A program made the position numbers and the translations under genes. A stretch of 64,000 bases of DNA from positions 857 to 64,856 of the forward strand of contig DATDPG010000187.1 of the NCBI GenBank assembly GCA_035292885.1, given 5' to 3'. This document shows positions 7,648 to 63,906 of the stretch, in pieces. Positions within the stretch are counted from its first letter, which is position 1. Each line of letters starts with the position of its first letter. The notes under the pieces were generated by a model. That model was not told the origin of the DNA, did no database searches, and saw only the letters and a program-made list of their open reading frames with translations. Origin of the DNA: Bdellovibrionota bacterium. Its GTDB lineage: Bacteria; Bdellovibrionota_G; JALEGL01; DATDPG01.

Positions 7648-7938
7648 TTGATGCTGCCCCCTCTCTTCCATGATCTCGCCTGGGACGTTGATCCAGCCGC
7701 CGTAGACCCCGCGCTTCACCGCCGGTGGTTGATCGCGAGAGTCCTGGGAAGAGGCACACTCAAGCAGGTCTACGCTATAGAGAAAATGGTCGGCCGAAAA
7801 ACCATCGAGGAGTTTTTCCGGAACGGGGGCTTGGATCAAGTGGATGTCCAGACCGGTTCGCTTTGGCTTACGCTCCTCGATTTGCCGAGGGAAGAATGCA
7901 CACGGAGATCCTCACCGTCGAGCAGCTGGAAATTCTAG
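7648..7938 (+). CDS. hypothetical small protein; possible cognate antitoxin of the AbiEii-like gene
   Basis: 96-aa ORF whose 3' end overlaps the start of the AbiEii-like gene by 44 nt. No recognisable domain. Confidence 0.25.
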   Translation: MMLPPLFHDLAWDVDPAAVDPALHRRWLIARVLGRGTLKQVYAIEKMVGRKTIEEFFRNGGLDQVDVQTGSLWLTLLDLPREECTRRSSPSSSWKF

Positions 7939-8531
7939 ACAGAGTATCCGAGACAGGAGGGACGCCGTTTCATTTGGCCGGCGGCACCGCTTTGGGCTTG
8001 ATCCTCGGGCACCGAAAATCCGTCGACTTTGACTTTTTTTCAAACGCGGAATTCGATGTCGAAGAACTCTATCAGGAATGGAGCCGACGTCTGCCCGGTT
8101 TTCGCCGGACACGCCAGGCGCCCCAAACGCTTTTGGCCACATGGAAAACTGTTTCGGTGAGCTTCTTTCGCTATCGATATCCCGAAATCGCCCCTTTGAT
8201 CCCAACACCGTGGAAGTTCGACCTGGTCGGCTTGGAAGACATCGCCGCCATGAAACTGGAGGCCGTCGGCGGGCGCGGAAGCCGAAAGGATTTCATCGAC
8301 CTTTATTTTCTTTTGCAGGGGCATTTCACGTTGGAGGACGCGTTTCGCTTCTTCGAGCGGAAATTTAAAGGTACGGGCTACGATCCCTACCATCGACTGC
8401 GCAGTCTGTCTTACTTCGCTGAGGCCGACGGCCAGCCGATGCCTGAAATGTTCATGCCGGCGGAATGGACGAAGATTAAGGATTTCTTTTCGGCCGAGGT
8501 CCGCCGGATGTGGGGAAAACCGCTTCAGTAA
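7895..8531 (+). CDS. nucleotidyltransferase AbiEii/AbiGii-family (DUF1814-like) protein
   Basis: 'FHLAGGTALGLILGHRKSVDFDFF' matches the AbiEii GG...R.S.D.D motif. The six-frame ORF starts at 7725; the start used here is the ATG at 7895 (MHTEILTVEQ). Confidence 0.7.
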
Positions 8532-8666: not shown

Positions 8667-9443
8667 TTAATAGACCACGCGCCAGAGAAAGAGTCCCTGA
8701 GCCGGGGCGGAAACGCCGCTCTTCTCTCTCCTTTTGGAGGCGAGGATATCAGGAATGTCCGAAGGTTTTCGCTTCCCCTGCCCTACTTCGACCAATGTTC
8801 CCACGATGTTCCGAACCATCTGCTTTAAGAAACCGTCGGCCGTGATCTCAAAATAGAGAAGCTCCAACGGCCCGCTCCCCCACACTGCTTCTCGAACAGT
8901 CCTTTCCGTGGTTTTGGTCTCCGTTCCCCGTGTCCTGAACGCGGCAAAGTCGTGTGTCCCGACCAGTTGTTTGGTCGCCTCCCTCATCGCCTCCAGGTCC
9001 AAGGCCTGGCGAACGTGCCACGTGTAGTTTCGCAAAAACACGAGCGGCTCGGCGCCGATCTGAAAGAAATAGCGATACGTCTTTTCTTTCGCTTCGGGGG
9101 CGTGAAACAAAAGTTCGGCCTCCTCGGAGCGGTAAACGCGGATATCGGGCGGCAGAAGCGTGTTGGTCCCGTCGACGAACGCCTCCACCGGAGTACGCGA
9201 CGTTCGAAGTGAAAAACTGGCGACCTGTTGCCGGGCATGAACCCCGGCATCGGTCCGGCCGGCGGAAAAAAGCGTCACCTTTTCGTCGGCGATCTTGCCG
9301 AGCGCCCTTTCCAAAAGTCCGTGGATCGACGCCCCCTTCAGCTGCCGCTGCCAGCCGACGTACGCGGTCCCTTCGTATTGCACGTCGATCCGAATCGTCC
9401 GCCGGGTACCAGGAGGCGGACCGGGTCGAGGCCCTCTTCGCAT
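8667..9443 (-). CDS. truA: tRNA pseudouridine(38-40) synthase
   Basis: 'SAGRTDAGVHA' carries the catalytic Asp motif. 'RYFFQI' and 'DFAAFR' are further TruA hallmarks. The true start may lie downstream of the annotated ATG. Confidence 0.9.
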   Translation of the reverse strand: MRRGPRPGPPPGTRRTIRIDVQYEGTAYVGWQRQLKGASIHGLLERALGKIADEKVTLFSAGRTDAGVHARQQVASFSLRTSRTPVEAFVDGTNTLLPPDIRVYRSEEAELLFHAPEAKEKTYRYFFQIGAEPLVFLRNYTWHVRQALDLEAMREATKQLVGTHDFAAFRTRGTETKTTERTVREAVWGSGPLELLYFEITADGFLKQMVRNIVGTLVEVGQGKRKPSDIPDILASKRREKSGVSAPAQGLFLWRVVY

Positions 9444-11926
9444 CAGAACTCCACGCCGAGACCAGGCTGGACGATCCAGCCGCTGACGTCGAGACCTTTG
9501 CTGAATTGGTGCCGGTACGAGCCAAGCACTTCCAAGAAGAAATGCTCAATTCCCATCAGGTCCTGAAGATCGTTTCCGGAGACGAAACGTTCGAGCATCA
9601 GGCGAACGCCGCCCGTGACCGTTATAGCCTGCTTCGCGCCGTTTTCAGACGCCTGCGGTTCGTGGATGTCGAAATAGATCAGGTCGTAGCCGGCGCGCAC
9701 GAACGGAACCGCCAACGGCCGCGCGCCGATTTCCACGTTGTATTGTGCGGAAAACTCCATCGGCACGAGTGTCAGGCGCGACTCTTCGCCGCTCTGCCGC
9801 CCGCTGCTGACACCCACCAGAGCGGCGTCTTCGGAAAAGAATCCCCCCTCGAATCCGAAATCGAACGAACCGGCCCGGACGCCAAACCGGAGCGTGTAGA
9901 TTTCGTTCCCGCCGTTTCCGAAAAAGGAATTCACCAGATCATCTTGCGGCAGCCACCAACCGACGCGGAATTCGGTCGATGCTCGAACCGGTGGCACGCT
10001 TTCAGCGGAAGTCAGCGTCTCGGCCGAAACGGACCGCGTCGACGCCGCCGAACAAACGACCAGGAACATTATGGCGGCCGCCTCGCGGCGACGCGCCGGA
10101 ACCGACAGGAGAAAAATCACGGAAAACAAAATCGGCGGAACCGCAGACGCCGCGCATCCGCCGGTTTCTCCGGACAGCTCTAAAATTCCGATCGTCTGTT
10201 CAGCGGTTTCGGACAGCGTCTCCGTGGGGGCGCTTTCGTTCCCGGATTGATCGACGACCGTCACGCGGACGAAAAGAGTCGTACCGTTGTCGATCGGCTG
10301 CAATGTGAGGGCTGAATCCGCGGTTTGTTCGACCCTCTGGGGTGAGGAGAGCGAGCCGAAGCCTCCTTCTGCGCCGTCGGTCGTGCCGAAATAGACGTTG
10401 TAATGGCTGATGTCCGCCTCCTCCACCTTGTCCCACGCGGCGAAGATTTTCTGATTTCCGAAGGATAAACGAAACCCGGTCGGGGCGGGAGGCGGCGTGT
10501 CTTTCACGACGTCGACCGCCGTCCTGCCGATCAACGTCCCGCTGTCCAAAAAGAGAGCCAACGTGTTGGAACCTTCTTCGAAGTTTTCGGATGGAATGGA
10601 GACTTCCGCTTCGATGTCCGCATCGAGGGAGGCGGAAGTCAAAAGCGAGCCGTTGGTTTTCGACACCCTTTCGTCGGTCGTCCCCGTATACCGGACGACG
10701 GATAGGGTTCCGGTGACATTCGACCGGACAAAGAGGGAAAAATTCCCCGTTCCTATGGAGCCGCTGGGCGCCGAAGTGACGGTCAAAAACGGCTGGTCGG
10801 TGACGACAGACACCGAAGCTCCGGCGTTGTTGAGGGCGTACAGGTATCCTTCGTCCGTCGAGGACGCTGCGAGTCCTCCCGGCGGAACATCGGGAACCGA
10901 ATCAATCGTGGCGATCGGTTCGACCTTCGCCGCTCCACCGATATCCGCTGTATCCACGACCGAAAGCGTTCCCGCCGTGCGGTTCGCGGCGAACAGATAC
11001 GCGGCGCCGGCCGAAGTATCTGCTAGAGAGCGGTTCACCTGCAATACGAGGGAACCGCTCGGCCCGTCGCCGACGACAATGGGATCGAGCGCGGTGGTCG
11101 AAGAATCCGCGTCGCTGATAAAGAGGTTGTTGTCGGTCTGAACCATGTTCACCATGAAAATTTCGCCGGGCGAAACGTTGTTCGAAAGAAAAGCGTAAGT
11201 CCCGCCCGAAGCAGCGCCCACATGAACGCCGCCAAAGGCTTGGGTCGTCGTCTGCGCTCCCAAATCGAGCTCCGCTCCCGCCTGAGAGAGTGCACTTGCC
11301 AGGAATGTCTTGAATTTTCCGTCGGAGCTGATGGCGGCCACCCTTCGGAAATCGGGGGAGAGGGATAGCGAGACGGGATCAAAACCGACGTCGATCCGAT
11401 CTTGAGAACCGTTCTTCACCAGCTCGTCCGACGTGCGACTGAAATAATAAAGCGCACTCTGAGACCGGCTGGAAAGAACCAAGATGTCGGCGCCGCTGGA
11501 ACCCGCCACCTCAAGGTTATCGAATGTCACCCCCGAAGTGCCGATCGAAATCGTCGTGGGGCTCGCGGGCGTCGACGGATCTTTGAGGTCGAACGAGAGG
11601 ACGGAGTCCGCGGCATCGATGACGACATACAAAATTGTGCCGTCTTGGCTGAATGCAAGGTCCCTGGGGGTTCCGGAAAACTGAACGGTCGACTTTTCCG
11701 AGAAAGATAACGTGTCGACGACAACGAGCGAACCTCTGGATGAATCCAAAACGTAGATGTAACGGTCGGTCGGCCCGACCCGTGCCGCGAGTGGCTGAAT
11801 CGACAGGGGAATGACTCCGGCGACCTTGTCCGGATAGGCCACGGCGTTTGCGCCAAGAAGGTAACATCCCGCAATAATAGGGAGAGTTCGGGTTCTGAAA
11901 AGCCGCATGGGATCGCGACGCATCAT
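9443..11926 (-). CDS. large secreted beta-propeller/FN3-like protein with a MYXO-CTERM-like tail, fused in frame to a C-terminal beta-barrel module
   Basis: N-terminal signal peptide, repeated propeller-like segments and an FN3-like block. Then 'GETGGCAASAVPPILFSVIFLLSVPARRRE' (Gly-Gly-Cys, transmembrane stretch, Arg-rich). This is followed, without a stop, by 'MFLVVCSAASTRSVSA' (signal-peptide-like) and a 208-aa beta-barrel-like domain ending in terminal Phe. Confidence 0.55.
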   Translation of the reverse strand: MMRRDPMRLFRTRTLPIIAGCYLLGANAVAYPDKVAGVIPLSIQPLAARVGPTDRYIYVLDSSRGSLVVVDTLSFSEKSTVQFSGTPRDLAFSQDGTILYVVIDAADSVLSFDLKDPSTPASPTTISIGTSGVTFDNLEVAGSSGADILVLSSRSQSALYYFSRTSDELVKNGSQDRIDVGFDPVSLSLSPDFRRVAAISSDGKFKTFLASALSQAGAELDLGAQTTTQAFGGVHVGAASGGTYAFLSNNVSPGEIFMVNMVQTDNNLFISDADSSTTALDPIVVGDGPSGSLVLQVNRSLADTSAGAAYLFAANRTAGTLSVVDTADIGGAAKVEPIATIDSVPDVPPGGLAASSTDEGYLYALNNAGASVSVVTDQPFLTVTSAPSGSIGTGNFSLFVRSNVTGTLSVVRYTGTTDERVSKTNGSLLTSASLDADIEAEVSIPSENFEEGSNTLALFLDSGTLIGRTAVDVVKDTPPPAPTGFRLSFGNQKIFAAWDKVEEADISHYNVYFGTTDGAEGGFGSLSSPQRVEQTADSALTLQPIDNGTTLFVRVTVVDQSGNESAPTETLSETAEQTIGILELSGETGGCAASAVPPILFSVIFLLSVPARRREAAAIMFLVVCSAASTRSVSAETLTSAESVPPVRASTEFRVGWWLPQDDLVNSFFGNGGNEIYTLRFGVRAGSFDFGFEGGFFSEDAALVGVSSGRQSGEESRLTLVPMEFSAQYNVEIGARPLAVPFVRAGYDLIYFDIHEPQASENGAKQAITVTGGVRLMLERFVSGNDLQDLMGIEHFFLEVLGSYRHQFSKGLDVSGWIVQPGLGVEF

Positions 11927-11953: not shown

Positions 11954-12466
11954 ATGACAAAGACCCGCCGATACACGTTGCCGATCATCCTTCTTTCTCT
12001 TTTTCTCGTCAGCTGCTCCGGCACACCGATCGCCACATTACGAGCCGCCGTCAGTTTTGCAGGGGACACCACCGGTGAGAATTCCGCCTCCGCCAATATC
12101 AATTTCACCAGTTTCACACAGCCGCCCGGTCCGAACGGAAACGATACGAATCTCCGAATGCTGTTTACGAATCCGGAGGGGGACACGATGCAGATTGTCC
12201 TGGCCCCCGTGGGCGGAACTTTTCCCACCAACACAAAATATGACCTGGACGGCGCGACCAACACGTTCGAGGCGTCGTTCACGGTGACCAGCGGGTCCGG
12301 CGCCCGCACCTATACGGTCTCAACGACGAACGGCTTTTTGAATCTTTACTCGGTGAATATCGTCGACGGTTATTTAAAAGGGATCAGCGCCGATTTTCGA
12401 ATGAACTTCGACAGCGGCGGCGAGAGTGCGGGAACCGGTGACGGCACGATTAGTTACAGCAATTAA
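11954..12466 (+). CDS. hypothetical lipoprotein
   Basis: 'LLSLFLVSCSG' lipobox. Small Thr/Gly-rich secreted protein. Confidence 0.6.
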   Translation: MTKTRRYTLPIILLSLFLVSCSGTPIATLRAAVSFAGDTTGENSASANINFTSFTQPPGPNGNDTNLRMLFTNPEGDTMQIVLAPVGGTFPTNTKYDLDGATNTFEASFTVTSGSGARTYTVSTTNGFLNLYSVNIVDGYLKGISADFRMNFDSGGESAGTGDGTISYSN

Positions 12467-13501
12467 TTAAATCAATTCTTTCGCGACAAAATGCTCGGCG
12501 ATCTGAATCGCGTTGAGCGCGGCGCCCTTGCGGAGGTTGTCCGCAACCACCCATAAATTCAGGCAGTTTTTGCGCGACGAATCGGCGCGAATTCGGCCGA
12601 CACAGACGGTGTCCTGGCCGACGGCATCGGCCAAAACCGGGTACCGGCGGGAGTTCCTGTCGTCGATCAAGCGAATGCTTTTCGCTTTGGACAAAACCGC
12701 GCGGGCCTCTTCGGGCGTGACGCTCTTTTTCGTCTCGACGTTGATGGAAACGGCATGGCCGTGGAACGTCGGCACGCGTACGGCCGTAACCGAGACGCCG
12801 ATCGAGCTGTCCCCCAAAATCTTCTTCGTCTCCTCGCAGATCTTGATCTCTTCCCCCGTCTCCCCGCTCTCCGCAAAATCCCCGATGTGCGGGATCAGAT
12901 TGAATGCGATCCGTTCCGGAAAAACCTCATTCTTCGTTTCACGATAATTAAAAAGATCCGTGACCTGCCGCGAAAGCTCTTCCATGGCCCTTCGTCCGGC
13001 CCCCGACGTGGATTGAAACGTGGAGACGACGATCCGACGGATGAGCGCGTGCTCGTGAAGAGGACCCAGAGCGACCGCCATTTGAATCGCCGCGCAATTC
13101 GGCACCGAAACGATGCGTCGTTCGGGGACTTGGTCCAACGTGTGAGCGTTCACCTCGGGCACCGCCAAAGGAACGTCGGCATCCATTCGAAAGGCGCTCG
13201 TGTTGTCGATGACGAGAGCGCCCGCGCGGGCGGCCACCGGAACGAATTCCCGGCTCACGGCCGCTCCGGCCGTGAAAAACACGAAATCGCTTCCGGCGAA
13301 CAGTTCTGGAGCCAGGCGGCGCACCGCAATTTCTTCGCCGTTGAATTCGACCGTCTGGTTTTGGGAGCGCTCGGATGCGGCCAGGCGCAATGCTTTTAAA
13401 GGAAATTTTCGTGAGGAGAGAAGCGAAACCATCTCTCGCCCCACCACACCCGTGGCGCCGACGACCGAAAAAACGAAGCTCTTGGCCGCGCTTCTAGCCA
13501 T
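12467..13501 (-). CDS. asd: aspartate-semialdehyde dehydrogenase
   Basis: 'VGATGVVGREM' NAD(P)-binding motif and the active-site Cys in 'SVPNCAAIQM'. Full-length Asd. Confidence 0.9.
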   Translation of the reverse strand: MARSAAKSFVFSVVGATGVVGREMVSLLSSRKFPLKALRLAASERSQNQTVEFNGEEIAVRRLAPELFAGSDFVFFTAGAAVSREFVPVAARAGALVIDNTSAFRMDADVPLAVPEVNAHTLDQVPERRIVSVPNCAAIQMAVALGPLHEHALIRRIVVSTFQSTSGAGRRAMEELSRQVTDLFNYRETKNEVFPERIAFNLIPHIGDFAESGETGEEIKICEETKKILGDSSIGVSVTAVRVPTFHGHAVSINVETKKSVTPEEARAVLSKAKSIRLIDDRNSRRYPVLADAVGQDTVCVGRIRADSSRKNCLNLWVVADNLRKGAALNAIQIAEHFVAKELI

Positions 13502-63290: not shown

Positions 63291-63479
63291 ATGAAGAAAA
63301 GGAGGAATAAAAAGCGTAACCGGGACCCGGTCGCCGAGAGACTGTTTGAATCGGAAAAGCTCTTTCGAGAAGCGCGGGAGCTTACCCCTTATACGTTTCG
63401 CCCTTTTTGGAAGACATTTGATTCCTTTGCCGAATACGAGCGGTGGAGACATGCCCAAAAAAATCCCTGGTACCGATAA
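63291..63479 (+). CDS. small hypothetical protein (62 aa); partner gene of nucleotidyltransferase module 3
   Basis: Overlaps the downstream nucleotidyltransferase gene by 29 nt. Basic N-terminus; 'FRPFWKTFDSFAEYERW' is loosely similar to the small proteins at 672 and 1415. Confidence 0.3.
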   Translation: MKKRRNKKRNRDPVAERLFESEKLFREARELTPYTFRPFWKTFDSFAEYERWRHAQKNPWYR

Positions 63480-63906
63480 CCGCGTCCTCTACGTCTGCAA
63501 GCTTCTCAATCGATATGAGGTCGATTATTTGGTCGCCGGCGCTGTAGCCGCTAATCTTCACGGAACCCTGCGGTCCACAAAGGATATCGATCTTCTGGTG
63601 CCGAAAAACCTCGAAAACATGAAGCGTCTCTTAGATGCCTTGTCAGAGCTTCCCTATGGGATCGCCAAAGACATCGATGCAGAAGAGATCGTCCACAAAC
63701 CCTTCACCATTGTCGGCGACGACCCGCGCGTCGATATTCTAACTGTGGCCGGGAAAACAACTTACGAAAGGGCTCGAAGGAGGAAAAAAATCCGGAAGGT
63801 ATCGGGAATCCCCATCCCCTACCTCGGCCTTTCGGATCTGATCGATTCGAAAAAAACGGGCCGGCCGCAAGACGAGGCTGATCTGCAGGTATTAATCAAG
63901 AAATGA
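63451..63906 (+). CDS. minimal nucleotidyltransferase-fold protein (AbiEii/MNT-like), module 3
   Basis: 'YLVAGAVAANLHGTLRSTKDIDLLV' and C-terminal 'KTGRPQDEADLQVL'. Paralogue of the genes at 838 and 1569. Start chosen at MPKK (63451). Confidence 0.65.
   Translation: MPKKIPGTDNRVLYVCKLLNRYEVDYLVAGAVAANLHGTLRSTKDIDLLVPKNLENMKRLLDALSELPYGIAKDIDAEEIVHKPFTIVGDDPRVDILTVAGKTTYERARRRKKIRKVSGIPIPYLGLSDLIDSKKTGRPQDEADLQVLIKK

Follow-up and report, generated by a model that had tools for sequence, protein, structure and literature searches.

The MYXO-CTERM sorting signal is described as specific to the Myxococcota (mBio 2025, PMC11980579). In its published model of action, lipidation is followed by cleavage by the CPBP protease MrtX and then by surface display via type II secretion. 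One tagged protein of Myxococcus xanthus, MXAN_2561 or SgmI, has two fibronectin type III (FN3) domains and is implicated in type IV pilus-dependent motility, and MXAN_2562, a predicted outer-membrane barrel, lies downstream of the SgmI gene, is apparently co-transcribed with it and has the same transposon fitness profile (2026 preprint). An atypical case is MXAN_5598, where an internal MYXO-CTERM is followed by an outer-membrane barrel and an OmpA domain; its authors suggest, as a proposal only, that two genes were fused and that the N-terminal part is processed and anchored at the surface, and they liken the protein to TraA plus TraB, which are encoded by overlapping ORFs (mBio 2025, PMC11980579). 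Here we describe an open reading frame (ORF) for 827 amino acids (aa) in a 64,000-nucleotide stretch of DNA, hereafter the window, from a metagenome-assembled genome (MAG) labelled Bdellovibrionota (assembly GCA_035292885.1, contig DATDPG010000187.1, positions 857 to 64,856 of the forward strand). The ORF joins a passenger and an outer-membrane beta-barrel in one frame across an internal MYXO-CTERM-like tail. We judge it probable that this gene encodes one precursor, from which two envelope proteins, the passenger and the barrel, would be released by way of a membrane hairpin and two cuts.

The ORF lies on the minus strand, which a preliminary description of this DNA had left unstated. Its protein is identical to VI895_13400 of NCBI, a hypothetical protein of 821 aa called from Met7 in a Bdellovibrionota MAG. 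The preliminary description had listed a signal peptide, propeller-like repeats, an FN3-like block, a tail made of GETGGC, a helix and an Arg cluster, and no stop codon thereafter, and all of these are present. The parts of the ORF are as follows (AF2, AlphaFold2; pLDDT, predicted local distance difference test).

9443..11926, minus strand: the whole ORF, 827 aa plus stop, with an ATG start; the putative precursor of passenger and barrel.
11837..11926, minus strand: N-terminal Sec signal peptide, aa 1-30, with a predicted cut AVA/YPD.
10757..11830, minus strand: YVTN/lactonase-type beta-propeller, about aa 33-390 (PF10282, TIGR02276 and TIGR03866 matches; AF2 strands).
10499..10750, minus strand: Ig-like beta-sandwich, about aa 393-476 (AF2 strands 395-475, pLDDT about 66-85).
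10205..10486, minus strand: FN3-like domain, aa 481-574 (modelled beta-sandwich, pLDDT 85-92).
10154..10171, minus strand: sorting-signal signature G-E-T-G-G-C, aa 586-591 (G589 and C591 invariant in alignment A1).
10094..10153, minus strand: helix 1, aa 592-611, the predicted stop-transfer helix of the MYXO-CTERM-like tail, conserved in position.
10085..10093, minus strand: Arg cluster R612-R614, the predicted cytoplasmic turn and the putative positive n-region of the internal signal peptide.
10022..10081, minus strand: helix 2 or internal signal peptide, aa 616-635 (AAAIMFLVVCSAAS-TRSVSA), with a predicted signal peptidase I cut after A635.
9446..10021, minus strand: eight-stranded outer-membrane beta-barrel, aa 636-827 (192 aa; AF2, Foldseek, NF040596), ending in Phe.

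The junction between the two halves reads LSGETGGC591-AASAVPPILFSVIFLLSVPA-RRR614-E-AAAIM620FLVVCSAAS-TRSVSA635/ETL and contains no stop codon. The peptide LSGETGGCAASAVPPILFSVIFLLSVPARRREAAAIMFLVVCSAASTRSVSAETL is likewise present without a stop, and the ORF protein ends in GLGVEF. An invariant Cys, as in MYXO-CTERM signals, is found in G-G-C at residues 589-591, C591 being shared by 9/9 aligned proteins, and the transmembrane helix with its Arg-rich stretch is found at 592-611 followed by RRR at 612-614. The position at the extreme C-terminus is lacking, as 213 residues follow the Arg cluster. Helix 2 has the parts of a Sec signal, with RRR as n-region, AAAIMFLVVCSAAS as core and TRSVSA/E as a predicted cleavage site, and in a mixed alignment of fused and standalone proteins it aligns with the N-terminal signal peptide of standalone barrels. 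A635 does not vary in A1, and its conservation is still at least 90% in a 48-sequence alignment that also takes in standalone barrels. Because the Arg cluster at the end of the tail and the positive n-region at the start of a signal peptide both belong on the cytoplasmic side, the two joined end to end would form a ready-made helical hairpin. A lipobox at LVVC625 in helix 2 was considered and rejected, as the Cys is not conserved in orthologues and Val at -1 is unsuited to a lipobox.

The passenger begins with the signal peptide MRLFRTRT-LPIIAGCYLLGANAVA/YPD, whose A/[YF]PD junction is kept in most of the orthologues aligned in A1. A lipobox at IAGC21 within this signal was also rejected, since that Cys is not conserved in orthologues. 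The propeller repeats match Pfam PF10282 at its cut-off and TIGR02276 with 30.2 bits against a cut-off of 27.85. The top match of the full model in the Protein Data Bank (PDB) is 1l0q, a YVTN propeller plus PKD of an archaeal S-layer protein. The FN3-like domain is a weak match to the Pfam fn3 family (residues 481-569, E 0.004), below the cut-off.

The last 192 residues are modelled as eight long antiparallel strands (AF2, pLDDT 81, predicted template modelling score 0.74). In Foldseek searches of the PDB this domain matches the transmembrane domains of OmpA and OprF as well as Ail, OmpX and OmpW (probability 1.0, E 1e-7 to 1e-4), which bears out the beta-barrel-like C-terminal domain of the preliminary description. 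Autotransporter barrels are weak matches (E 2e-3 or worse, TM-score 0.28-0.34). An eight-stranded barrel is too narrow for a folded protein, and the domain is therefore more likely a partner or an anchor than a channel. Type Va autotransporters likewise combine signal peptide, passenger and outer-membrane barrel, in this order, in one chain; their barrel has 12 strands and is threaded by the linker, and passenger and barrel are not parted by membrane helices or by another signal peptide. With eight strands and a predicted cleavable hairpin between its parts at the inner membrane, the ORF falls outside that class. A profile of the barrel retrieved 1,052 family cluster representatives, and about 43 among the 64 short representatives seem to be full precursors of standalone barrels. 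Members of the same family also end three proteins of about 580-800 aa (P0098, P0122 and P0131) whose upstream region has no G-x-C tail. These upstream regions have in common the motif ...F[VI]xxYY[KR]xSP..A..I...L...R..LLP..G, followed by hydrophobic segments, and they may represent a different anchor fused to the same barrel family.

The continuous architecture is widely conserved. Because full-length homologues exist at 45-51% and about 25% identity, the ORF is not a chance reading frame. Nine proteins aligned in A1 (24-52% identity) have the same continuous architecture, with C591 and A635 invariant, and homologues with only about 20% identity, from Bdellovibrionota-like and Myxococcota genomes, still have a continuous ORF. 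It recurs in independent ENA, JGI, NCBI and Logan assemblies. Among the best 150 family representatives, 68 are fused; these are 764-990 aa long and have the barrel at their extreme C-terminus. A crude scan of the 68 found two separable hydrophobic segments in 63 and merged segments in four more. In the 63 that could be scored, a Cys stands just before helix 1 in 61, the loop between the helices has at least two Lys/Arg in all 63 and a net positive charge in 62, and a small-x-small site follows helix 2 in 59. The loop has a median length of 3 residues, with rare inserts of up to 132. Inserts of about 30-55 residues in the predicted cytoplasmic loop are seen in P0002 (locus L001, 10001-12622) and P0008 (L003, 10001-12697). 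A scan with a passenger pattern (alignment A4) found no relatives among GTDB species genomes, and a profile search with alignment A3 of a word-indexed protein database found nothing new.

The chromosomal position of the gene is conserved as well, between the following two neighbours.

8667..9443, minus strand: truA, the kept downstream neighbour, whose start overlaps the ORF stop by 1 nt (TGATG).
12467..13501, minus strand: asd, the kept upstream neighbour where the locus extends far enough.

truA is found downstream in 14/14 distinct fused loci and asd upstream in 11/14; the exceptions for asd (L004, L011 and L012) have too little upstream sequence or no asd match. The asd/truA context holds even in the clade at 25% identity, in ENA, JGI and NCBI assemblies. 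A scan of a genome collection with a barrel alignment of the Myxococcota type (A5) gave ten loci, five of them titled Myxococcota and the rest with other or doubtful MAG labels. Their ORFs are 774-869 aa long with the same junction, truA follows in 10/10 and asd is upstream in 8/10. The records of L011, L013 and L017 are titled 'Alphaproteobacteria', 'Enterobacteriaceae' and 'Rickettsiales' MAGs despite their Myxococcota-type gene, and are probably mislabelled bins.

These results bear on the simplest alternative, namely that loss of a stop codon or an indel ran two adjacent genes together in this assembly or strain, as an artefact or a recent accident, and that the fusion is biologically meaningless. 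Proteins with such tails normally terminate at the tail, and split gene pairs do exist, one of which is a single in-frame TAG away from the fused state. However, the continuous ORF is found across independent assemblies down to the lowest identities, beside truA in each fused locus examined, and the residues of the junction are conserved in a family in which the fused state is common among the best representatives. We give this alternative a negligible chance. Since the continuous ORF recurs across orthologues, in synteny and in the best 150 family members, the comparisons indicate that the fusion is real, old and orthologous, which excludes both a misassembly and the recent disappearance of a stop codon. 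The preliminary description had regarded uniformly continuous orthologues as evidence against its proposals. The syntenic orthologues are indeed continuous, and this removes the accident while leaving a coupled system of passenger and barrel in place.

The preliminary description had also pointed to an internal Met, with GAGG 11 nt upstream, from which 208 aa run to GLGVEF. Both elements are where it placed them.

10067..10069, minus strand: internal ATG (Met620), with 208 aa from Met620 to the end; orthologues have Leu, Ile, Val or Ala here.
10081..10084, minus strand: GAGG, 11 nt upstream of the internal ATG, within CGC GAG GCG (R-E-A); absent from orthologues.

Their position just before the second hydrophobic segment would suit an internal start, in which the barrel is made separately from Met620 with GAGG as its ribosome-binding site and read-through from the passenger is minor. 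Conservation argues against this. Met620 is not conserved, the DNA of four orthologues has no conserved start codon plus Shine-Dalgarno (SD)-like run in the loop, and in one orthologue, P0005, the stretch from helix 1 to the barrel is free of ATG, GTG and TTG. A start at Met620 (MFLVVCSAAS...) would leave the n-region of the signal peptide without positive charge, while Lys/Arg residues are found close to the N-terminus of 35 of 43 standalone barrels. The GAGG itself also encodes Arg-Glu. It is not beyond chance, because it is a 4-mer in DNA of 56% G+C, its spacing is longer than usual and orthologues lack it. Finally, the upstream frame has no stop codon, so the full-length chain would be made regardless. 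Internal initiation as the route to the barrel is hence highly improbable in our view, and the earlier suggestion of it is not upheld by the orthologues. Because Met620 and its SD-like run are not conserved, P0005 has no start codon and no n-region would be available from Met620, the barrel must, on these comparisons, normally be made within the long chain.

Coupling of a Cys-tailed passenger to a barrel of this kind is seen also in separate genes. Residues 467-614 of the ORF, comprising the FN3 domain and the tail, match NF045522 (MXAN_2561 family MYXO-CTERM-anchored protein) over profile positions 156-302 of 304 (E 2e-8), and residues 651-827 match NF040596 (MXAN_2562 family outer membrane beta-barrel protein) over positions 3-208 of 208 (E 2e-13). 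Like the ORF, the SgmI/MXAN_2562 pair combines an FN3 surface protein that has a Cys/helix/Arg tail with an outer-membrane barrel of about 200 aa, in the same order. Unlike the ORF, the pair is made of two genes, and its passenger is short (a 304-position model) and has no propeller; the ORF has one frame and an extension of about 480 aa with the propeller and the Ig-like domain.

Three further loci (L016-L018) are split, with a passenger that ends in a Cys tail followed directly by the barrel gene. The passengers of L016 and L017 are 711 or 714 aa long with their own signal peptide and a terminal tail (...GEVGGCGCESS...LLGLVRREDRK and ...GDSGGCTCESS...LLATLRRRHSTHGQ, each before a stop codon), and the barrel gene comes immediately after; in L017 the two genes share a single base (TAATG). 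The upstream gene of L018 terminates with ...GEEGCQLL...MLRRRFI before TAG, and the barrel ORF starts 21 nt on, in the same frame, after a GGGGGA run, so that one in-frame stop codon separates the split from the fused state. The halves of the ORF align in order with the two L017 genes (FN3 and tail up to G-G-C, E 2e-9; barrel, E 1e-5). The overlapping TraA/TraB ORFs of M. xanthus resemble these split relatives in pairing a MYXO-CTERM surface receptor with a barrel partner (PMC11980579). Unlike the barrel of the ORF, TraB also carries an OmpA domain; TraA has an unrelated passenger, and the two proteins come from separate frames. A gene for a polytopic membrane protein of about 700 aa, conserved between L016 (4605-6689, minus strand) and L017 (4601-6733, minus strand), lies convergent to the barrel gene and right after it.

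Of the two explanations offered by the preliminary description, a coupled passenger and barrel from one frame finds support in the syntenic orthologues in two phylum-level lineages, in the weak matches of both halves to the families of the co-transcribed M. xanthus pair and in the alignment with split pairs. Fusion of two genes by loss of a stop or an indel fits as an old event, given the stop codon of L018 and the 1-nt overlap of L017, and fails as a recent mutation or an assembly error. Stop loss, as these loci indicate, is right as evolutionary history, which may have run towards fusion or towards fission.

The order of elements at the junction suggests how one chain might give two proteins. 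The N-terminal signal peptide would direct the chain to Sec, and the passenger with its propeller, Ig-like and FN3 domains would cross to the periplasm until helix 1 stops transfer, the RRR turn staying in the cytoplasm. Helix 2 would then re-enter the membrane as an internal signal peptide that uses the Arg cluster of the sorting tail as its n-region, the barrel domain would be translocated, and signal peptidase I would cut after VSA635. The released barrel of 192 aa would reach the outer membrane via the usual chaperone and beta-barrel assembly machinery (BAM) route. The passenger, held by helix 1, would be processed at the invariant Cys591 by a myxosortase-like step, and a hairpin of about 44 residues would be discarded. 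In this way the fusion would supply passenger and barrel 1:1 from one message. The structural polyproteins of flaviviruses and alphaviruses have a stop-transfer helix and then a helix that doubles as signal sequence for the protein that follows, with host signal peptidase making the cut. The topological logic is the same, and the analogy is mechanistic only, as these polyproteins of eukaryotic viruses are processed at the endoplasmic reticulum membrane and share no homology with the ORF.

Several observations weigh against this reading. From sequence we infer all that follows translation, from the topology of the hairpin and the two cuts to lipidation, the destinations of the products and an adhesin-like role, and AF2 confidence is low for both helices. 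Some initiation at Met620 may occur in the window's own organism. NF045522 is matched with 34 bits against a cut-off of 150 and NF040596 with 50.3 bits against 100, and because these scores are far below the cut-offs, the halves of the ORF are classed by these models as distant relatives, not members, of the MXAN_2561 and MXAN_2562 equivalog families. The isolated tail of the ORF has no TIGR03901 or TIGR03382 match at E <= 10, its best match being 12.7 bits to the tail of NF041894. Pfam scans of window ORFs, 20 further ones among them, turned up neither a CPBP/Rce1 protease nor any gene for secretion, type II included, and the Pfam-annotated neighbours of four orthologue loci, out to 10 kb, likewise include neither a CPBP protease nor a type II secretion gene. 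A regular-expression scan found no other protein with a terminal Cys tail in the window or in L001-L005. The contig is also labelled Bdellovibrionota, outside the phylum for which MYXO-CTERM has been described.

The tail scores, the taxonomic label and the missing enzyme, secretion genes and other Cys-tailed proteins would likewise suit a related alternative. It shares the hairpin and the signal peptidase cut and dispenses with the myxosortase-type step, so that the passenger would stay in the inner membrane on helix 1, facing the periplasm, and the conserved Cys would serve otherwise, through acylation without cleavage or in a disulfide. We hold this to be unlikely. G-x-C is invariant across the family, including the Myxococcota orthologues that pass curated models: the tail of P0142 scores 21.6 bits against the TIGR03382 cut-off of 15.85, and that of P0140 scores 21.6 bits against the TIGR03901 cut-off of 20. 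The SgmI family model aligns through the tail, and the passenger resembles surface proteins. The absence of the enzyme, for its part, means little when 64 kb of the genome are covered. A passenger processed at Cys591 and a barrel released by signal peptidase thus remain our preferred products of the precursor.

A more far-reaching idea is that the barrel serves its own passenger at the outer membrane as a dedicated receptor or exporter, so that the two would form a self-contained secretion unit, cut apart at the inner membrane and reunited at the outer membrane. On the sequence features at hand we regard it as a long shot. If it were true, such a unit would work without type II secretion, outside the Myxococcota and with a Cys-processing enzyme other than the known myxosortase, and the two helices, once excised, might have some function as a peptide.

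Other genes of the window were noted alongside. A predicted lipoprotein gene (11954-12466, plus strand; 170 aa, LVSC lipobox) is divergent from the ORF with 27 nt between the start codons, and abuts the end of asd. Its product has no Pfam match. Homologues occupy the same divergent position in L001/L002 (41% identity) and L004 (33%), and the distant clade has no such gene at that position and has asd directly upstream instead. This lipoprotein may be a further partner of the system. A gene for an AbiEii-type nucleotidyltransferase toxin (7725-8531, plus strand) lies two genes from the ORF, and an AbiEii/AbiEi pair is found near the orthologue in the distant genome L003 (4634-6104). Elsewhere, three small ORFs on the plus strand (838-1299, 1569-2054 and 63346-63906; 153, 161 and 186 aa) have a common C-terminal ...[AT]GRP[KQ]D..D[LV]... 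motif and, by this motif, look like paralogues. In Pseudomonas, Vibrio and Legionella the slot between asd and truA is occupied by FimV/HubP, a pilus and polarity protein, and SgmI of M. xanthus has its own link to type IV pilus-dependent motility. No similarity of the ORF to FimV domains was found in Pfam and NCBIfam scans, and the shared slot may be a positional coincidence only.

Chains of this kind are already known from MXAN_5598. That protein, compared here by description only, resembles the ORF in that a Cys-type sorting tail lies inside the chain and an outer-membrane barrel comes after it, and differs in its large-adhesin passenger, its OmpA peptidoglycan-binding domain and its location in a cell-division cluster. 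Processing of a non-terminal signal has a precedent in Haloferax volcanii, where an ArtA substrate with a tripartite signal away from the terminus is reported, on experimental evidence, to be processed still by its sorting enzyme (Abdul Halim et al. 2017). This substrate is like the ORF in having an internal tripartite sorting signal; it is unlike the ORF in being archaeal, with a PGF-type signal and an archaeosortase, and in having no barrel and no outer membrane. A literature search on bacterial precursors with an internal signal peptide found nothing relevant. What the present locus adds is another family, distantly related to the SgmI/MXAN_2562 pair, in fused form and with a propeller in the passenger. 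The wide conservation in one syntenic slot across two lineages is new, as is the coexistence of split and fused states. So too, as predicted from the aligned junctions, is an explicit hairpin logic with a conserved signal peptidase site.

For annotation, this means that such genes should not be marked as frameshifts or assembly faults, and that detectors which look for sorting signals only at the C-terminus miss them. The range of MYXO-CTERM-like signals is widened by the ORF to a MAG with the label Bdellovibrionota. The fused form lends itself to studies of the processing of internal tails, of the order of lipidation and of the myxosortase and signal peptidase cuts, and of the role of the barrel partner. 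The union of a Cys-tailed surface protein and a small outer-membrane barrel has stayed within one gene, at one chromosomal position, in two lineages of phylum rank, and so appears to be an ancient, conserved unit and not peculiar to Myxococcus.

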